A stretch of 17,523 nt of DNA, taken from assembly GCA_039589315.1 (NCBI GenBank), contig JBDHHQ010000113.1:1-17523 (forward strand). The letters are read 5' to 3'. Source of the DNA: Gemmatimonadota bacterium. Lineage in GTDB: Bacteria; Gemmatimonadota; Gemmatimonadetes; Longimicrobiales; Gaopeijiaceae. The stretch's first letter is position 1. Every line of letters starts with the position of its first letter. The translations under genes and the position numbers were made by a program. Under the pieces are notes generated by a model. That model saw only the letters and a program-made list of their open reading frames with translations. It did not search any database and was not told the origin of the DNA. This document shows positions 4,649 through 16,233 of the stretch, one piece after another.

Positions 4649-6324
4649 TCACCCGGAACCGCCACCGACCGCCGCCCCCGCCAGCGCCTCAAATACGATG
4701 GCAGTCGCCTCTTCCTGGATCTGCTTCAGGTGCCCGCGTCCGCGGAAGCTCTCCGCGTAGATCTTGTAGATGTCCTCGGTGCCCGAGGGCCGGGCCGCGA
4801 ACCACCCGTTCTTCCGTTCTTCGTGACCACCTTGAGCCCTCCGATAAGAGCGCCGTTGCCCGAGGCACGCGTCAGCTTGGCCACGATCGTCTCCCCGGCG
4901 AGCTCGTCGGCCTTGACCAGGTCGGGTGACAGGTTCTCGAGCGCGGCCTTCTCGGTGGCGGTGGCCGGCGCCTCCATCCGTTCGTAGACGGGACTGCCGA
5001 AACGCCCCTCCAGCTCCCGGTAGCGCTCGGCTGGGTCCTTCCCGGTCACCGCGGTGATCTCAGCCGCCAACAGGTCCAGGATGATGCCGTCCTTGTCGGT
5101 CGTCCACACGGTGCCGTCCATCCGTGCGAACGACGCGCCGGCGCTCTCTTCCCCGGCGAACGCGTAGCTGCCGTCAACGAGGCCGTCGACGAACCACTTG
5201 AAGCCCACGGGCACCTCCGCCAGCGCGCGCCCGAGCGCGGCGGCCACCCGATCGATCATCGAGCTGGATACGAGTGTCTTTCCGACTGCGACGTCCGGCC
5301 TCCACCCCGGCCGATGCGTGAACAGATAGTCGATCGCCACCGCCAGGTAGTGGTTGGGATTCAGGAGGCCCGCGTGTGCAGTCACGATGCCGTGCCGGTC
5401 GAAGTCCGGATCGTTGCCGAAGGCGATGTCGAACCGGTCCTTCAGGTCGATGAGCCCGGCCATTGCGTACGGCGAAGAGCAATCCATGCGGACCTTGCCG
5501 TCCCAATCGAGTCGCATGAACGAGAAGGTGGGGTCGACCCTACGGTTCACGACCTCGATGTCGAGACCGTACGTCTCGGCGATCGGCTCCCAGAACCCGA
5601 TCCCCGCGCCGCCCATGGGATCGGCACCGATGCGGAGCCCGGCGGAAGCGATGGCCTTCATGTCCACCACGTTGGCCAGGTCGGCGACGTACGGCCTGAC
5701 GTAGTCGTGCTCCAGCACGTTGCCGGACGACAGGGACTTGCGAAGGCTCCAGCGTCGGACGCCGTCCAGCCCACAGTCGAGCAATTCGTTTGCTCGCCTC
5801 TGGATCACCGCAGTCGTCGCCGAGTCCGCTGGACCGCCGCTCGTGGGGTTGTATTTGAAGCCACCGTCACCCGGAGGATTGTGGGACGGCGTGATCACCA
5901 CGCCGTCGGCTCGGTCGGTCGCTGTCGTCCGGTTGTGCGCGAGGATGGCATGGGAGATGACCGGCGTCGGCGTGTACCCCCGTCCGGACTGGATCAAGAC
6001 GTTCACACCGTTCGCCGCCAGCACCTCCAGTGCCGTGGTCATCGCCGCTTCCGAGAGGGCGTGGGTGTCCATGCCCAGGTAGAGCGGTCCAGCGATCCCT
6101 TTGTCGCGGCGGTCCTCGGCGATGGCCTGGGAGATGGCCAGGATGTGGTCTTCGTTGAATGACCCCTTCTCCGACGTGCCCCGGTGGCCCGAGGTGCCGA
6201 AGGACACTCGTTGCCCCGGGTCTTCAGGGTTCGGGGATTCGCTGTAGTACGCGGAGACCAGCCGGGGGATGTTCGTCAGCTCCTCCGGGGGAACGGGTTT
6301 CCCGGCTAGCTCGTGTATGGGCAT
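4649..6324 (-). pseudogene. pgm: Phosphoglucomutase (alpha-D-glucose-1,6-bisphosphate-dependent), frameshifted near the 3' end by an 8-bp duplication
   Basis: Motifs [16 protein letters not shown] (phosphoserine), DPDFDR (metal loop) and GEESAG. After LKVVTKNG the frame shifts; the conserved [20 protein letters not shown] continues in another frame to TGA at 4649-4651. Removing one copy of the repeat gives a 555-aa ORF. Confidence 0.92.
4806..4822. repeat. 8-bp tandem duplication (CCGTTCTT x2; AAGAACGG x2 on the coding strand)
   Basis: The + strand reads ccgttcttccgttcttc, exactly at the pgm frameshift. Confidence 0.95.
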
Positions 6325-7535: not shown

Positions 7536-7831
7536 TCGGGTCCTCCAGATCCGGTCTTCACCAGTCGAAAGGCCTGGACACCACGAGATAGCTCACCAGC
7601 ACCTGCCCAATGGCATGCTCGTGCAGACGCGGAAGTACTGGGAGAAACGACTCAAGGGCGATCCGGGGTGAGGAGAGGGACGGGGGCAAGATGACCTCCG
7701 GGTCACCGCCGGATCAAGGTTGGCGGAGGATGTCCAGGGCCGAGCTGGTCGGCAACAGGCCGGGAAGCGATCCGCTACCGGCCGACTACACGATCGACCG
7801 GTACCACCGGACGTGTAGGACGGCGCACGCC

Positions 7832-7865
7832 CGCAACTGTGCTGCGCTGTCGCAACGTCAGCGAC
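7832..7865. promoter_or_regulatory. Candidate upstream activator sites for a sigma-54 enhancer-binding protein
   Basis: Two adjacent dyads, CGCA-N7-TGCG (7832-7846) and GTCGC-N7-GCGAC (7849-7865), both contain CGCAAC. They sit about 90-120 bp upstream of the -24 element. Confidence 0.35.
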
Positions 7866-7954
7866 TTGGGGTACCCCTTGTCTTGCCGTTGGGATCTCCC
7901 GGCGTGCCTTCCGCTTACGCGTCGCGGCCCAATCGCTCACAGCACAGAAACCTC

Positions 7955-7970
7955 TGGCATCCATATTGCT
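7955..7970 (+). promoter_or_regulatory. Sigma-54 (RpoN) -24/-12 promoter for the Flp pilin
   Basis: TGGCAT-CCATA-TTGCT matches TGGCAY-N5-TTGCW with exact GG-N10-GC spacing, about 90 bp before the pilin ATG. Confidence 0.8.
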
Positions 7971-8062
7971 CCCGACCGTATCATGCGTATCGAGGGTCCT
8001 TCCCGGGCGAGACCCCCCCGCACCGCTCGCCTCCGTATCTCCAGCAGTCGCCGAGGGCCGAC

Positions 8063-8272
8063 ATGCTCGAGCTGTTGAGGCGCCTCCAGTCCGATGCGGC
8101 AGGTCAGGGGCTCGTCGAGTATGTCCTCATCATCGCGTTGGTCGCGGTCGCCCTGATCGCGATGCTCATCGTGTTTCGGGACGCGGTGGCCAAGGTCTTC
8201 GGCATGGTCTCGGACACGCTGAACGAGACGCCCATCTGCGGTCAGAAGGGTCAGTCCCACAAGTGCTTCTAG
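8063..8272 (+). CDS. flp: Flp/Fap family pilin (Tad-type), 69 aa
   Basis: MLELLRRLQSDAAG|QGLVEYVLIIALVAVALIAMLIVF has a short leader, the G-x4-E-Y Flp motif and a hydrophobic helix. A GAGGG RBS precedes ATG 8063. It is the 3' part of tracked ORF 7610..8272. Confidence 0.9.
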   Translation: MLELLRRLQSDAAGQGLVEYVLIIALVAVALIAMLIVFRDAVAKVFGMVSDTLNETPICGQKGQSHKCF

Positions 8273-8313: not shown

Positions 8314-11034
8314 TCAGCTCCCCACCCGCGCCTTCAGCTCCTCGAACCAGTTCTCCACCACGATGAGCTGATTCGGGTCGCCCGTCTCCCCGAACACCCG
8401 GGCCATCAGGAACTGCTCGTCGTCCGGTGATACATCGTACTGGGTGGTGCGGTCGCCCAGGATGTACTGGGCATCGATCCTGAACAGTGCTCGTCGCTCC
8501 CCGACCCGGAAGCCCGGCTCCGTCTCGATCTGGGCGGCCACCATCTCGCGGTCGCCGTTCACGTAGAAGAGCTCCCGCCCGCTGTGGGCGAACAGGGGCG
8601 ACAGTCCCCCACCGGTGGAGATCTGCCACTTCCCCGACCCGACATCGGGAAAGGGACGCACGAAAACCTCGTCGCTTCCGGTCTCGTTGGACTGGTAGGC
8701 CAGCCATCGTCCGTCGGGAGAAAGGTCGATGGCGCTCTCGTCGAACTCCGCGCCGAGAAGCGGGACAGGAACGCTATCGCGCCCGGGCCTGACCGCCAGG
8801 ACATCCCGTCCGCCCGATACGCCTCCCTGTCCGCCGGTCCTGAGCAGCAGCCATTCCTCGTCGGGGCTCCAGAACGCCTCCGCGAGTGTGCGCTCGAAAT
8901 CGACCACGAGTTGGGCCTCGCCGGTGCCGTCCGCGCGCTTCACCCACACGTCGAGGTTTCCACCCCGGTTGGAAAGGAAGGTCACGGACTGCCCGTCGGC
9001 CGTCCATTGGGGCATCCGGTCGTGACCCTCGTCGAAGGTGAGGCGGGAAAGGGGGCCCTGCGGTAGCTCCTTGACCCAGATATCGTGACCGGCTTCGGTA
9101 AGCGATCGGAGCACGATCCGGCTACCGTCGGGCGAGAGAGCCCAGCCTCGGTTGGCGTCTCCGGGGTTGATCGTCCAGTCGGGATCCACGGGCGTCGCCC
9201 CGCCCTGGCGCGTAACCCAGACGAGCTCCACATCCGTATTGGATGCGGCGCTCCCCGTGGTGTACATCAACGTCCCCGTGTTGGACACCGCCAGGTCGGC
9301 CACGCCCGCAGGGGTCACACGAACGCCTTGGACCATGGCGACAGGGTCGCCCGTCACCGCCAGCTCGTTCTGGTCGAAGGTTGCCGCCATCAGCGTGCCA
9401 TCCGCAGTCACGTAGACCAGGTGGCCGGAAGGCGAGTAGGTGCCGTAGACGCCCCGGACGAGCACGCGATGCTCCCCGCTGGCGAGATCCAGGACTGCGA
9501 TGTCGCGAGCCGCCAGGTCCCCTCCTCTGGCGATCGAAAACAGCACTCCCTTGCCGTTGGGCAGGGCAGTGGTCCACTTGTGCGCGAGCTCGTTGGCAGT
9601 GGTGTCAGGCACCGTCACGATCTCGAGAGCACCGCCCGTGGCGGGGACCCGCATGATGCCTTCGTTGGCCGGGTCGCCGCCTGTACCGTCCGCGTAGATG
9701 TAGCCGTCGACCCCCCAGGATGCGCCGGCATAGCCGATGCCCGAGTCGGCCACGGCGAGCGGTGGACCCCCGCTCAACGACACCACCCATATGGTCGTCG
9801 GGCCAGCGGTGTAGTACGCGACCCGTTCGCCATCGGGCGAGAAGAACGGCGACCCCACAGTGGGGCCCTGGGTGCCTGGGATGGCCGTGGCGGTCAGCTG
9901 GGACCGGTCCCGCAGCCAGAGCTGGTCGGCGCCTCCCGGAACCGGGCCCGTATAGACGAAGCGCTCGGAGTTGGGCGAGAGTGCGAGCCGTGGGCGAATT
10001 CTGGGCGCGAGCGTCACATCGGTCAGCCCGAGGCTATAACGTAGTACGGGAGCGGGCGGGTCGGGTCGCAGCGACACGACTCCCAGCGTGGCCACTGCCA
10101 CCGCCGCCACACTCCACCCGATCAAGGCGTTTCGCTTCCACGGGCTGCCTCCAGCAACGTTCGCCGCCCCAACCGCTTCTCCGTGCCGGAACGAAGGCTC
10201 GGCCAACGCCTTCGCAAACTCGCCGGTCGTCTTGAACCGGTCCGCCGGCAGCTTCTCGAGAGCCTTCCGGATCGCGGCGTCCACGTTGGCCGGGATCGAG
10301 CTCCGGATGGCCGTCGCCGAGACGGGCGCTCCCGCGATGATCTTCCCCAGGACCGCCTGTGCGGTAGCCCCGGGATACGGCGGCTCGCCCACCAGCATCT
10401 CGTACAGCACGCATCCCAGCGAGTAGGTGTCGGCCGCTGCCCCGATCACCTGGTCTCCCGTCGCTTGCTCAGGGCTCATGTAGAACGGCGTGCCGACGCT
10501 CAAGCCCGTCTCCGTCAGCCGCGCCCCTCCCGCCCCGCCCACCGCCAGCGCGATGCCGAAGTCGGCGATGAGCGGCCGCCCCTCGTGCATCAGCACGTTG
10601 GCCGGCTTGATGTCCCTGTGGATCACCCCCGCGCGATGCGCGTAGTCCAGCGCCTCGGCCATGTCCGTGGCGATGCGGAGCCCTTCGTCCACGGGAAGCT
10701 GCCGCTCCCGGTCCAGCCGTTGCCGCAGCGTCTCGCCGTCGACGTATGGCATCACATAGAAGAGGAAGCCGTCTGCCTCCCCGGAGTCGTGGAGCGGCAG
10801 GATGTGAGGATGCTGCAGGTTGGCCGTCGTCTCGATCTCGGTCAGGAACCTGTCGGCCCCTACCACGGCAGCCAGCTCGGGCTTCAACACCTTCACCGCG
10901 ACCTTACGCTTGTGCTTGAGGTCGTCGGCCAGGTACACGGTGGCCATGCCACCTTGTCCCAACTCACGGATCAGGTCGTAGCGGCCTTCCAAAGCCGCCT
11001 TCAGGCGCTCAGGGACTGCGGGGAGGTCGGTCAT
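8314..11034 (-). CDS. Hanks-type Ser/Thr protein kinase with a TM helix and C-terminal TolB-like/PD40 beta-propellers
   Basis: Kinase motifs LGQGGMATVY, VAVK, HRDIKPAN, DFG and YMSPEQ. TM segment ALIGWSVAAVAVATLGVV is followed by repeated (L/F/W)SPDG blades and the C-terminal VVENWFEELK. Confidence 0.95.
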   Translation of the reverse strand: MTDLPAVPERLKAALEGRYDLIRELGQGGMATVYLADDLKHKRKVAVKVLKPELAAVVGADRFLTEIETTANLQHPHILPLHDSGEADGFLFYVMPYVDGETLRQRLDRERQLPVDEGLRIATDMAEALDYAHRAGVIHRDIKPANVLMHEGRPLIADFGIALAVGGAGGARLTETGLSVGTPFYMSPEQATGDQVIGAAADTYSLGCVLYEMLVGEPPYPGATAQAVLGKIIAGAPVSATAIRSSIPANVDAAIRKALEKLPADRFKTTGEFAKALAEPSFRHGEAVGAANVAGGSPWKRNALIGWSVAAVAVATLGVVSLRPDPPAPVLRYSLGLTDVTLAPRIRPRLALSPNSERFVYTGPVPGGADQLWLRDRSQLTATAIPGTQGPTVGSPFFSPDGERVAYYTAGPTTIWVVSLSGGPPLAVADSGIGYAGASWGVDGYIYADGTGGDPANEGIMRVPATGGALEIVTVPDTTANELAHKWTTALPNGKGVLFSIARGGDLAARDIAVLDLASGEHRVLVRGVYGTYSPSGHLVYVTADGTLMAATFDQNELAVTGDPVAMVQGVRVTPAGVADLAVSNTGTLMYTTGSAASNTDVELVWVTRQGGATPVDPDWTINPGDANRGWALSPDGSRIVLRSLTEAGHDIWVKELPQGPLSRLTFDEGHDRMPQWTADGQSVTFLSNRGGNLDVWVKRADGTGEAQLVVDFERTLAEAFWSPDEEWLLLRTGGQGGVSGGRDVLAVRPGRDSVPVPLLGAEFDESAIDLSPDGRWLAYQSNETGSDEVFVRPFPDVGSGKWQISTGGGLSPLFAHSGRELFYVNGDREMVAAQIETEPGFRVGERRALFRIDAQYILGDRTTQYDVSPDDEQFLMARVFGETGDPNQLIVVENWFEELKARVGS

Positions 11035-12928: not shown

Positions 12929-13813
12929 CTATCCCCTCGCCACCGCCCGCGCCTTTGCAATCACGTCCGGCCACAGGTCAGCGAGCCAGGTCCCCGCCGT
13001 GTAGCCGTCGAGCTCTCCCACCAGCCGCCGCGCCTGATCGGGGGAGAAGTAGTTCTCCCAGTCTCCCACCTGACCCTTGCGGACGAAGGGCGGCATGTCG
13101 TCGGGGCGCTGGCTCGACCAACGGTGCTGGTCCCTTCTCATCCTGGCGAAGCTGCTGTGCTCCAGAACCTCGTCGACTACGGCCGGATCGGCGACGGCTT
13201 CGCTGAACTGCCCACCGAGAAAACGGCCGACGTCCAACACGACCGATCGCGGCTCGGACCGCATGGCCTCGAAGGTGGTGAACAGGACGTTGTCCTCTTC
13301 TGCCCGCTCTCCCCACGAGACGAGGTGGTCGAAATAGCTGCCCCAATCCACTCGACCCGCGATGAAGCACTCGAAGAACTCGTCGAACGTCCCGTCGGCG
13401 AAGTCGTAGTGCTTCACGAAGCCCCGGGTGTGATGGAAGAACGAAACGGCACAGTCGAGGGGATTCCTGGCCACGTAGACGTAGCGGGCGCCGGCATGGA
13501 GCGGCGTCATCGCGAAAGGCAAGTGGGTCTTGATGAGCCTGGGCTCGTCCATGCACTCGACGAACTCGCCGCCCACTTCCTCGAGGTGTGGGAACTTCTC
13601 GGTCAGCCGTTCGTCTCCTGACAGAGGGCGGCCGCCATGAGCGAGTAGCCAGACGATGTGCTGCATCCAGGTCGTGCCGCACTTCGGGTAGGTCGCCACG
13701 AAGACGTCTCCCGGACGAGCCTCAGAGCTCAACGCGGATACGAAGGCCTCGACGGGGAACCCCATAGGCATGAGGAACCCGTCGTGGGAGGTGTAGCGAG
13801 GAGACCGTGTCAT
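12929..13813 (-). CDS. PAPS-dependent sulfotransferase (Sulfotransfer_1, cytosolic SULT-like)
   Basis: 5'-PSB TYPKCGTTW, catalytic KTHLP, 3'-PB ARNPLDCAVS and C-terminal RKGQVGDW. The start is most likely ATG 13813 (MTRSPRY), giving 294 aa. Confidence 0.93.
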   Translation of the reverse strand: MTRSPRYTSHDGFLMPMGFPVEAFVSALSSEARPGDVFVATYPKCGTTWMQHIVWLLAHGGRPLSGDERLTEKFPHLEEVGGEFVECMDEPRLIKTHLPFAMTPLHAGARYVYVARNPLDCAVSFFHHTRGFVKHYDFADGTFDEFFECFIAGRVDWGSYFDHLVSWGERAEEDNVLFTTFEAMRSEPRSVVLDVGRFLGGQFSEAVADPAVVDEVLEHSSFARMRRDQHRWSSQRPDDMPPFVRKGQVGDWENYFSPDQARRLVGELDGYTAGTWLADLWPDVIAKARAVARG

Positions 13814-14064
13814 TTCGAAGGCGTTCCGTTCGCGAAGTTCGGACCTGGTGCGACCCGACCCGCCAGCATGCACCCGCCGAACCCAAGGGCCGGTGCGGCT
13901 CGAGGGCTCCGTTGAGGATCCAGGGACCTCGGGTACCCTTCCCCACAACCATCCGCGTGGATTGCCCGATTGGAAAGCGGCCGGGCGGCCCGCGACGTTG
14001 ATTTGTTCGACGGGATTGTCTCCACCGAGCCCGATGTAACTCGAGACCGGCAGGAGGTCGACCG

Positions 14065-15096
14065 GTGTCCCTCGCAAGCGCCGAGCGGGAGTTGATCGCC
14101 CTCGGCATCTCTGTCGCCGCAGGGTGCAAGCCCTGCACCAGCCATCATCTTCGGGCGGCCCGCGAAGCCGGCGTCACCGACGAGGAGATGATGGAGGCGG
14201 TGGCGGTTGCTGTCTCCGTGAGGACTCACGCCACGGAGGTCATGGAGCGGTTCTTCCTTGCCCGACTCGGTCCGCGATGGCGGTCCAAGCAAGGTCGCCC
14301 TCCCCGATTGGATCCGCCTGGTCGGGTTGGCGTGCTCGTGTCTCTGGGCGTAGCCCACGCGGTCAATTGCACTTCGAGCGTACGTCGTCATAGAGGCACG
14401 GCGGTAGCAGCGGGCATCCCACATGCGGACATCGACACGGTGCTGAAGCTGGCGCGACACATCAAGGGGAGGGGGGCCTACCACGTCGAGAAATACGCAC
14501 CACCGACCACCGACGAGCGAGTCTTTCTGTTCCTCGACCTCACCGACTCCACCGGGATCGCCGAGCGACTCGGACATGAAGACTACAGCCGGCTCATCCG
14601 CGCCTGCTATCACGATCTGACCGACCTCGTCATCCGATATCGAGCAGAAATCTACCAGTACGTCGGAGATGAGGTGGTGCTCAGCTGGAGCCTGGCCGAC
14701 GGCCTTGCCGACGCGAACTGCGCTCGGATTCTCTTCGTCTTTCGCGACAAGCTCGCAGCTCGTCGCGAGAAGTATGAAGCCAGCTTCGGCATCCAGCCGT
14801 CCTTCCGGGGGGGTGCCGACCTGGGCCCGGTCACAAGGGCAGACGTGGGCGGCGTGAGCCCCGAGATCGCATACCACGGTGACGTGCTCAACACCGCGTC
14901 TCGCATCCTAGGGCTCGCGAAGGCCCACCAGGAGCCACTCCTGATCTCCGGGCGGGTGCGGGACGCCCTGCCGACGGTCCCGGACCTGCTCACGCGGTTC
15001 GTCGCAGACGTCGTCCCGCGAGGCAAGAGCGAGCAGCTCCGAGTGTATGGCGTCGATCCGATTACGTCCGAATCGCTCACAGCAGAGCCTGCATAG
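14065..15096 (+). CDS. Fusion of a CMD/AhpD-like domain (two repeats) and a class III adenylate/guanylate-cyclase-family domain
   Basis: AGGAGG RBS before GTG. The N-terminus has ERELIALGISVAAGCKPCTSHHLRAAREAGVTDEE and a second repeat LVSLGVAHAVNCTSSVRRH..AAG. The C-terminus has FLFLDLTDST, YQYVGDE and GDVLNTASRI. Confidence 0.88.
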   Translation: MSLASAERELIALGISVAAGCKPCTSHHLRAAREAGVTDEEMMEAVAVAVSVRTHATEVMERFFLARLGPRWRSKQGRPPRLDPPGRVGVLVSLGVAHAVNCTSSVRRHRGTAVAAGIPHADIDTVLKLARHIKGRGAYHVEKYAPPTTDERVFLFLDLTDSTGIAERLGHEDYSRLIRACYHDLTDLVIRYRAEIYQYVGDEVVLSWSLADGLADANCARILFVFRDKLAARREKYEASFGIQPSFRGGADLGPVTRADVGGVSPEIAYHGDVLNTASRILGLAKAHQEPLLISGRVRDALPTVPDLLTRFVADVVPRGKSEQLRVYGVDPITSESLTAEPA

Positions 15097-15119: not shown

Positions 15120-15275
15120 ATGGCTGGCATGAGCTCGGCGATGGAGAAACATCACCGGCTGATTATCTCGAGTCTGGTCGCCGTGATCGTCTTCTTCATG
15201 ATCGCGTGCACGTTCCACGATGTCATCCCGATCTGCCACTACCTCTTCGGTTGCGACCACGGGATGCACGTCTAG
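15120..15275 (+). CDS. Small (51 aa) single-TM or lipoprotein-like peptide with a Cys/His-rich C-terminus
   Basis: GGAGGA RBS directly upstream of ATG 15120, TAG at 15273-15275. Translation: MAGMSSAMEKHHRLIISSLVAVIVFFMIACTFHDVIPICHYLFGCDHGMHV. Third codon positions are GC-rich, and it fills the gap between two same-strand genes. It is below the ORF-track length cutoff. Confidence 0.8.
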   Translation: MAGMSSAMEKHHRLIISSLVAVIVFFMIACTFHDVIPICHYLFGCDHGMHV

Positions 15276-15363: not shown

Positions 15364-16233
15364 ATGAACACGAATCTGCTCGATCTCACCGATGGCCGGC
15401 GGCTCTGCTGGGCTGAGTATGGCGACGGCAATGGAACTCCCCTCTTCCTGTTTCACGGAAACCCTGGCTCCCGACTGTGCTGGGGTGCCTGGCCAGGTTT
15501 GCAGTCTCTTCGTGGGGCGCGACTCATCGCCCCGGATCGGCCGGGTTATGGGCGAACCGACTTCACGCCGTCCGCTCTGGAGTCCTGGCCATCGGACATA
15601 GTCGAGTTGGCCGATCATCTCGGCATCGAGAAGTTCGCGGTCTTCGGGCCATCCGGGGGAGCGCCCTATGCCCTGGCCTGTGCGTGGAAGATCCCGGACC
15701 GCCTGACGGCCGTAGGCGTGTTCGGCGCCGTAGGTCCCAATGCGCCAGAGGCGATCGTAGGGGTGCACCGTTCGCTCAAGCTGCTCTGGCGGATCGCGAG
15801 ACCGCTCCAGCCGATCGTTCGCCTGCAAATGCTCTTGATGGCCCGAGTCGCCCAGAGAGACCCCGCTCGGCTGGCGCGCAACATGCGGGACCTCGAGTTG
15901 CGGGAGGAGGACCGGGCCATCTTCGACCGACCGGAGATTGTCGGGATGTTCGCCCAGGATTTTCCCGAGGCCTATCGCCAGAACGGCATCGGGTCAGCCT
16001 ACGATGCAACGATTCCGGCGAATTGGCCCATCCCGCTCGAGGACGTGCACATGAAGGTCCGACTCTGGCACGCCGAGCGGGATCCGCTGGTTGGGAACAT
16101 GACCCTCTACCTCGCCGAGCACTTACCGAATGCAGAGCTGCAACGCCTCCCCGGCGAGGGTCACCTCTGGATCCTCGATCACCTGGCGGAAGTGCTCGAT
16201 AGCCTGCTCGAGCATGAGCTGAGGCCGGGGTAG
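15364..16233 (+). CDS. Alpha/beta fold hydrolase (Abhydrolase_1)
   Basis: DGRRLCWAEYGD, FHGNPGSR, APDRPGYG, nucleophile GPSGG, WHAERD and GEGHL. ATG 15364 has GAGG upstream. Confidence 0.92.
   Translation: MNTNLLDLTDGRRLCWAEYGDGNGTPLFLFHGNPGSRLCWGAWPGLQSLRGARLIAPDRPGYGRTDFTPSALESWPSDIVELADHLGIEKFAVFGPSGGAPYALACAWKIPDRLTAVGVFGAVGPNAPEAIVGVHRSLKLLWRIARPLQPIVRLQMLLMARVAQRDPARLARNMRDLELREEDRAIFDRPEIVGMFAQDFPEAYRQNGIGSAYDATIPANWPIPLEDVHMKVRLWHAERDPLVGNMTLYLAEHLPNAELQRLPGEGHLWILDHLAEVLDSLLEHELRPG

Follow-up and report, generated by a model that had tools for sequence, protein, structure and literature searches.

The gene at positions 14065..15096 (+ strand) of the window, the 17,523-nucleotide stretch of Gemmatimonadota DNA analysed here, encodes a 343-aa protein in which a tandem CMD (AhpD-like) module is fused to a class III nucleotide cyclase. 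This fusion protein is real and conserved in bacteria. The module is probably an undescribed sensor of thiol stress, and the cyclase belongs to a large subfamily, the Gln/Ala YQYVGDE cyclases, that is apparently uncharacterised. We consider it fairly probable that the cyclase is under cysteine-based gating of whatever chemistry. Our best explanation, redox gating of the cyclase through the module cysteines, is tentative and falls somewhat short of an even chance.

The open reading frame runs unbroken from a GTG at 14065 to a TAG at 15096, with an AGGAGG ribosome-binding site (14052..14057, + strand) 7 nt 5' of the GTG; the corresponding start codon is ATG in the copy of a same-genus genome. 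Pfam places CMD at residues 3-52 with 66.3 bits (cut-off 23) and Guanylate_cyc at residues 150-302 with 19.1 bits, under the cut-off of 21.9, which two fused relatives exceed (36.1 and 34.4 bits). Of the domain pair put forward in a sequence-only reading of this DNA (PF02627 plus PF00211), CMD exceeds its Pfam cut-off in the window protein and the cyclase domain does so in those two relatives. That reading had also described one uninterrupted frame with two CMD-like repeats joined to a cyclase and no transmembrane segment. Here the frame, the Pfam CMD match, a gapless alignment of the repeats and a structural match to CyaB all agree with it, and a Kyte-Doolittle scan found no hydrophobic stretch at the membrane threshold in any of the 13 fused proteins, as against at least one in 105 of 107 non-fused relatives. 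In the AlphaFold2 model of the whole protein (mean pLDDT 82), six helices (residues 5-137) lead through a low-confidence joint (137-144) into a cyclase fold.

Homologues that span the junction, on which the sequence-only reading had made the fusion depend, exist in number. A search of 8,000 candidates gave 1,173 matches, and among the best 120 of these 1,173, from which our figures are taken, 13 covered 96-100% of the query. These are the window protein and 12 clusters with 53-84% identity, which come from JGI, ENA, Logan and NCBI. A sediment-metagenome contig of 221 nt covers 14387-14607 across the junction with 13 differences (two runs identical in content, counted as one data set), the G+C content is flat across the junction, and the same-genus genome carries a syntenic copy. 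Between the two copies (dS ~0.6), dN/dS is 0.17 in repeat 1, 0.10 in repeat 2, 0.10 in the cyclase, 0.98 on the few sites of the 17-residue linker, and 0.14 overall. These ratios point to purifying selection on both the CMD module and the cyclase. That the fusion is an assembly chimera or an accidental one-off is practically ruled out by the independent full-length homologues. The points in favour of that idea are the rarity of the gene, which is present in 2 of 251 same-family genomes, and the outcome of contig scans with the fusion alignment: these were dominated by a word common to cyclases, and all 158 loci found (80 + 78) were non-fused, none covering the CMD part.

The fusion appears to have arisen once. 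In a quick tree of the CMD module (106 rows, with 70 of 176 stand-alone rows drawn randomly; SH-aLRT support only), the 13 cyclase fusions formed one branch with a support of 98. A quick cyclase tree (68 rows, including 42 of 107 non-fused proteins and 13 loci; SH-aLRT support only) likewise places them on a single branch with a support of 83, which lies within the membrane-anchored relatives, and the inner groups of the fusion clade agree between the two trees. As congruent single clades are found in both, the simplest account is a single fusion, after which the two domains were inherited together. Two to five membrane helices are predicted in 102 of the 107 non-fused YQYVGDE relatives, and the source genome encodes several membrane-type paralogues of this kind. 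One of these paralogues (L161, G000:C156) has an in-frame stop within its catalytic domain. In the cyclase tree one paralogue groups with a Longimicrobiales locus, which points to a Gemmatimonadota host.

CMD repeat 1 (residues 3-68; 14071..14268, + strand), supported by Pfam and by its invariant residues, holds E9 (14089), C21-K-P-C24 (14125-14136), H27-H28 (14143-14148), R53 and M60. A flexible linker of low pLDDT (residues 69-85; 14269..14319, + strand) separates it from the degenerate repeat 2 (residues 86-143; 14320..14493, + strand), in which N101 is conserved in 13/13 cyclase fusions, the second Cys is replaced, and an output helix (120-143) forms the end. The two repeats align without gaps at 21% identity (E 0.001), with C21 opposite C102, C24 opposite S105 and H28 opposite H109. 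C102 is present in 53 of 55 stand-alone proteins and 15 of 15 kinase fusions, but in only 8 of the 13 cyclase fusions. Modelled alone, the module reached a pLDDT of 92, and its best structural match among 48,161 chains was Mycobacterium tuberculosis AhpD (1gu9; Z 17.5, rmsd 3.0 over 139 residues), the next match having a Z of 12.9. Among the NCBIfam models, the AhpD core domain exceeds its cut-off (TIGR00778, 43.4 bits, cut-off 27.8), and the full-length AhpD model TIGR00777 gives 18 bits against a cut-off of 191.95.

The available part of PMC3141380 gives the AhpD relay as Glu118, Cys130, Cys133 and His137 with the spacing E-x11-C-x2-C-x3-H, and E9, C21, C24 and H28 fit this spacing. The redox motif had been read from the sequence as CxxC-x2-H; by the spacing in that part of the source it has to be corrected, the relay histidine being H28 and not H27. 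All four relay residues are conserved in 13/13 cyclase fusions and 15/15 kinase fusions, and the CxxC, whose loss in fused homologues the sequence-only reading had held to count against its proposal, is kept in all of these fusions. One position differs from AhpD: His132, which lies inside the CxxC and is Tyr in PA0269, corresponds to Pro23 here, and Pro stands at this position in 12/13 cyclase fusions, 15/15 kinase fusions and 55/55 stand-alone proteins.

The parent family of the module consists of stand-alone two-repeat proteins of 150-170 aa (59 matches; 86 representatives at E < 1e-30), which far outnumber the fusions. A profile search of proteins of 344-2,000 residues gave 23 matches, comprising 15 histidine-kinase, 4 cyclase and 4 ECF sigma factor fusions; Pfam confirmed 6/15 of the kinases and 4/4 of the sigma factors. 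Among 24 longer proteins in the 150 matches listed, Pfam added two kinase fusions (one partial), which makes 17 histidine-kinase clusters in all, as well as one SpoIIE/PP2C phosphatase fusion, one GNAT fusion whose partner is ArsN2 (138.6 bits, cut-off 125) and one kinase-CMD fragment, with the module only in the other 19. In the kinase fusions the module is N-terminal, and its last helix continues into a leucine-rich segment that resembles a coiled coil and into an intact H-box, with CKPC in 15/15; in the phosphatase fusion it also occupies the N-terminal input position. The ECF sigma fusions carry the module C-terminally, are more distant and lack E9 and H28. Kinase (94), cyclase (98) and sigma (99) fusions form separate branches of the CMD tree, with the PP2C and ArsN2 fusions apart from them. 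That signalling enzymes have repeatedly acquired the module at their input position is our main argument that it would be a sensor; three of the five partner types are represented by few sequences. The module was rare elsewhere, with 1/301 and 0/151 genomes in samples of two other phyla, 0/5 in single genomes searched and none in plasmids.

Beside 25 stand-alone loci the neighbours were mixed, with one acr3 and with FeoAB in three related loci, and no recurring peroxiredoxin or thioredoxin gene or redox operon was found among the called ORFs scanned there (55/64 and 62/76). Many of the soluble tandem-CMD histidine kinases (P0188-P0202, P0213, P0284) have a short Cys-containing tail (RCDRL-like). 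The sigma factor fusions (P0203-P0206) are SigZ-like and combine their C-terminal tandem-CMD extension with Cys-rich tails, one of them having a DGC domain too. Stand-alone modules of one order, at L191, L193-L196 and L208-L223, end C-terminally in a conserved Cys-Cys pair, at the place where the fusions have the output helix.

The cyclase domain (14506..15060, + strand) contains D158, D202, Q198, A269, R248, N276, R280 and K321. Its AlphaFold model matches CyaB with Z 22.3 (rmsd 2.8, 187 residues aligned), and it is nearer to CyaB, bPAC, Cya2 and CyaC (Z 21-22) than to pyrimidine cyclases (Z 16-18.5). Foldseek matched it to OaPAC (E 5.5e-12), OaPAC and bPAC were the best PDB sequence matches (E 5e-12), and an Atlas search with the fusion protein returned generic cyclase clusters. 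Canonical guanylyl cyclases select guanine by a Glu plus a Cys. The base-selecting positions here are Q198 (13/13 fusions and 107/107 non-fused relatives) and A269 (13/13 and 106/107), which align with the Lys and Thr of OaPAC. The adenine-selecting Lys and Asp/Thr are thus replaced and the guanine-selecting Glu is lacking, so that on the residue criteria of the available part of PMC4886424 the cyclase is canonical neither as an adenylyl nor as a guanylyl cyclase. The sequence-only reading had overlooked these base-selecting residues. The two metal-binding aspartates that this part of the source gives as a class III feature, D158 and D202, are present in 13/13 fusions. The transition-state residues are found in the window protein and in nearly all fusions (R280 13/13; N276 12/13, His in one), and K321 is replaced by Gln in 6/13. 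The window's sub-clade (4/13 fusions) has drifted further, with S265-P266 as against K265 in 107/107 non-fused relatives; the proteins P0005 and P0013 keep K265-R266. The source genome has at least 17 other class III cyclase domain matches against 5 cNMP-binding domain matches, and by virtue of the latter a read-out for a cyclic nucleotide exists.

A model of the dimer, which the sequence-only reading had suggested building, was made from two copies of residues 1-335. It scored 0.80 against 0.00 for the best control, with a partner pLDDT of 81-82 and at least half of the contacts common to the runs; the mark for this score is reached by 20 of 30 solved pairs and 1 of 23 single chains. The interface predicted with confidence lies wholly between the two modules and has two-fold symmetry (54-54', 57-57'); it includes residues 17-22, 53-64, 100-103 and 134-147. 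Judging from pairs such as 21-101', 22-60' and 25-60', C21 would face M60 and the N101-C102 turn of the other chain, and the helix leading to the cyclase would lie in the same interface. No confident cyclase-cyclase contact was predicted, nor any contact beyond residue 147. Interface residues are slightly more conserved than other helix residues, a difference that is not significant (0.69 vs 0.63, p 0.09). AhpD has been solved as a trimer, and the pass of the dimer model may come from likeness to solved CMD oligomers. The junction (residues 135-147; 14467..14505, + strand), with G135, G137, Y139 and H140 invariant in the fusions, falls inside the predicted interface and within the span of the metagenome contig. 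Gly is invariant at residue 137, itself an interface residue, only in the cyclase fusions; Ala stands there in 49/55 stand-alone modules and 15/15 kinase fusions. The recurrence of the module on other signalling outputs and the predicted position of C21 at the dimer interface together lend support to the sensor idea.

The gene context of the cyclase fusions is known from the source genome (G000) and the same-genus genome (G001). The neighbours are a divergent sulfotransferase gene (12929..13813, - strand; Pfam), which is syntenic in G001, a 51-aa peptide gene (15120..15275, + strand) and an alpha/beta hydrolase gene (15364..16233, + strand) whose start is syntenic in G001; Pfam found no cNMP-binding effector gene among them. 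Upstream of the fusion gene, a non-coding block (13936..14015) is identical at 74/80 nt in G001, while synonymous sites diverged (dS ~0.6). The block is single-copy in the genome and probably serves the divergent gene pair as promoter or operator. It had no Rfam family over threshold and was not unusually structured (fold z 0.14), and a search of the plus strand gave no sigma-70 promoter.

The 51-aa product is a Cys/His-rich, putative membrane peptide with one hydrophobic stretch and, in six sequences, invariant C30, H33, C39, H40, C45, H47 and H50. Its gene begins 23 nt past the fusion stop with its own GGAGG, and it also lies 3' of the fusion in G001. No Pfam family, no viral relative and no Atlas match above 0.80 was found for it. 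In three more genomes, two of them from a single genus, a stand-alone module has such a peptide gene within 1.5 kb. Across 145 genomes of one order, the module occurs in 22 and the peptide in 20; they share 11 genomes (Fisher p 6e-6, a value that kinship makes too strong), and in 8 of these the two genes are not adjacent. The peptide as a partner of the module is a lead only. The peptide family as a whole (window 15120-15275; L223, L224, L226, L229-L250) comprises unannotated, putative membrane peptides of ~50 aa with three invariant Cys and several His, and has varied neighbours (a multiheme cytochrome in four loci; arsM and an ECF sigma gene in L241). Elsewhere in the window, an 8-nt tandem duplication at 4807-4822 shifts the frame of a phosphoglucomutase gene (4726-6324, - strand), the normal C-terminal domain of which goes on in another frame; this is a broken gene or an assembly slip. 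The window further contains an ordinary Ser/Thr kinase with PD40 repeats (8314-11034, - strand), an ordinary Flp-type pilin at the end of an ORF (7610-8272, + strand) and a 388-aa ORF in which no Pfam family was found (173-1339, - strand).

We propose that the fusion protein would be a cytosolic one-component signalling enzyme. Its ancestor would have replaced the membrane anchor of a YQYVGDE class III cyclase by a stand-alone tandem-CMD protein once, as the trees and the conservation support. The module would form the predicted two-fold dimer, its interface containing C21 and the last helix, which continues directly into the cyclase. At C21/C24, oxidation or thiol-disulfide exchange aided by the E9/H28 relay may then shift the module interface, which would open or close the head-to-tail cyclase dimer. 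The product would be a cyclic nucleotide made from a purine NTP, probably with a relaxed choice between ATP and GTP, as suggested by Gln/Ala in place of the Lys and Asp/Thr pair. A C21-C102' bridge cannot be a general feature of this mechanism, as C102 is missing in 5/13 cyclase fusions. That the catalytic residues D158, D202 and R280 (13/13) and N276 (12/13) are kept beside the relay residues (13/13) is consistent with a gated cyclase. Against redox gating, on the residues and domain scores, stand the Pro at the His132 relay position, the Guanylate_cyc score below the Pfam cut-off and S265-P266 in the window's sub-clade. The neighbours of the 25 stand-alone loci, among which no redox operon recurs, and the small difference in conservation at the predicted interface count against it too.

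The same architecture could instead respond to a thiophilic metalloid or soft metal (As(III), methylarsenite, Cu(I) or Hg(II)) bound at C21/C24 and the partner's C102'/M60' or H27/H28. We regard this as unlikely, and a redox signal is more likely than As(III) or a metal. The arsenic hints for the module are real but scattered. They include the ArsN2 fusion, one stand-alone gene directly 5' of acr3 (427 bits), NCBIfam similarities that are closest, far under the cut-offs, to ArsM-AhpD and related selenoprotein models, the peptide of the downstream type that follows arsM and an ECF sigma gene in L241, and ArsM encoded, unlinked, in both G000 and G001. H27, which is kept in 13/13 cyclase fusions and is mostly Tyr elsewhere, and the presence of C21, N101-C102 and M60 at the predicted interface would also fit such a site. 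However, acr3 stands beside only 1/25 stand-alone loci and was not found in the source genome (95% complete), Pfam found no ars, mer or cop gene in the window, C102 is absent from 5/13 fusions, and the Glu/His relay, which belongs to thiol chemistry, is conserved in full. Alternatively, the module might be a constitutive dimerisation scaffold that took the place of the membrane anchor and has a separate peroxidase or disulfide-reductase activity, the cyclase being ungated by the cysteines. The wholly module-module character of the confident predicted interface agrees with this, and as the far commoner stand-alone modules conserve the same residues, conservation of the relay needs no signalling role; conservation of the CxxC is equally expected if the module retains a peroxidase job of its own. 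We nevertheless find a mere scaffold doubtful, since separate branches joined the module to four different signalling outputs, as happens with sensor domains, and the fusion-specific junction residues G137 and Y139 are invariant. A weaker point against it is that the classical AhpD partner, the peroxiredoxin C-terminal family PF10417, was not found in the source genome (95% complete) with one query.

Two further readings concern the product and the signal. The Gln/Ala cyclases might make neither cAMP nor cGMP, but another cyclic nucleotide, or might only bind NTP, which we think improbable. The invariant Q198 and nearly invariant A269, the Gln at K321 in 6/13 fusions and the lack of a paper characterising the subfamily in the literature searched would suit such a departure. 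So would the neighbours of 155 non-fused cyclase loci, judged from their sequences: none is conserved, the largest neighbour cluster comprises 12 loci, and no cNMP-binding gene recurs among the top clusters. The metal and transition-state residues are intact, though, and the fold is nearer to purine than to pyrimidine cyclases. Gln at the base-selecting site is moreover reportedly tolerated in Rv0386, which accepts both ATP and GTP, a point for which the literature searched gave no confirmation. There is a slim chance that the signal for the module is a partner protein or a small molecule, for example with the adjoining Cys/His-rich membrane peptide as a redox relay. The peptide gene follows the fusion in both genomes, lies at most 1.5 kb from stand-alone modules in three others and shares 11 of 145 genomes with the module, and a structural match to Sestrin2 (Z 6.2) recalls the leucine-binding, AhpD-like Sestrin domain described in the available part of PMC11429811. 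Set against this are the separation of the two genes in 8/11 shared genomes, nine peptide-bearing genomes that lack the module, the non-independence of related genomes and the Z of 6.2 itself, which helical proteins can reach by chance.

Besides redox gating of this one enzyme, we entertain a wider idea, held as a possibility that does not reach even chances. The tandem AhpD-fold module could be a general bacterial sensor of thiol oxidants or As(III), recruited independently onto cyclases, histidine kinases, PP2C phosphatases and ECF sigma factors, and joined here to a Gln/Ala cyclase that may make a non-standard cyclic nucleotide. If this is right, bacterial signalling would gain a new family of input domains, in which the fold of an antioxidant enzyme serves as a cysteine switch for four or more outputs, and thiol state would be tied directly to cyclic-nucleotide synthesis. 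As a soluble protein of 343 aa, the fusion can be purified and could show what the widespread, nearly all membrane-bound YQYVGDE cyclases make. A thiol- or arsenite-gated cyclase, if true, would be a compact biosensor part. The fusion is rare and comes from uncultured bacteria, and modular sensor-cyclase fusions are familiar. The sequence-only reading knew of no characterised protein with this architecture, and a full-text literature search, with subscription papers and supplements outside its scope, found no paper on a CMD/AhpD-cyclase or CMD/AhpD-kinase fusion or on an AhpD-fold kinase sensor. A domain-architecture table elsewhere may list a CMD-cyclase fusion.

Compared with AhpD (1gu9; PA0269; CMD family PF02627), the entire module superposes on one protomer (Z 17.5) and has the Glu, the two Cys and the distal His in relay spacing. 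It differs in carrying the CxxC in its first repeat rather than, as in M. tuberculosis AhpD, the last, and in its Pro at the His132 position, its predicted two-fold dimer and its fusion to signalling outputs, with no AhpC-type partner found in the source genome by the single PF10417 query. Soluble class III cyclases with N-terminal sensors (bPAC and OaPAC with BLUF, CyaC, Rv1264) have the same order of dimeric sensor, helix and catalytic domain, the dimer being a prediction here; unlike them, the fusion has an AhpD-fold thiol module as input and Gln/Ala rather than Lys/Thr, and identity is < 20%. The membrane-anchored YQYVGDE cyclases, many from Bacteroidota and with paralogues in the source genome, are by the cyclase tree the direct ancestors of the catalytic domain (~38-56% identity, same Gln/Ala signature), but have two to five predicted membrane helices (102/107) where the fusion has none. 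Pycsar pyrimidine cyclases (PycC) share the class III fold and non-canonical base-selecting residues (7r65, Z 18.5), with a structural score lower than that of purine cyclases. In Pycsar (PycC-PycTM/TIR) a cNMP-binding effector gene is adjacent to the cyclase, whereas none adjoins the fusion gene. CMD/AhpD genes are reportedly tied to signal transduction through ECF41 sigma factors, and the CMD genes beside these factors are their targets; there they are neighbours, whereas here the module forms part of the signalling protein. The Sestrins are a case in which the AhpD fold was turned into a signalling sensor, according to the available part of PMC11429811, but they are eukaryotic, bind leucine and GATOR2, have no cyclase and match the module with a Z of only 6.2. 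A sensor joined to a cyclase is a familiar kind of protein; this one stands out by a module that is probably a new family of input domains, and by giving a soluble way into a cyclase subfamily that has apparently not been characterised.
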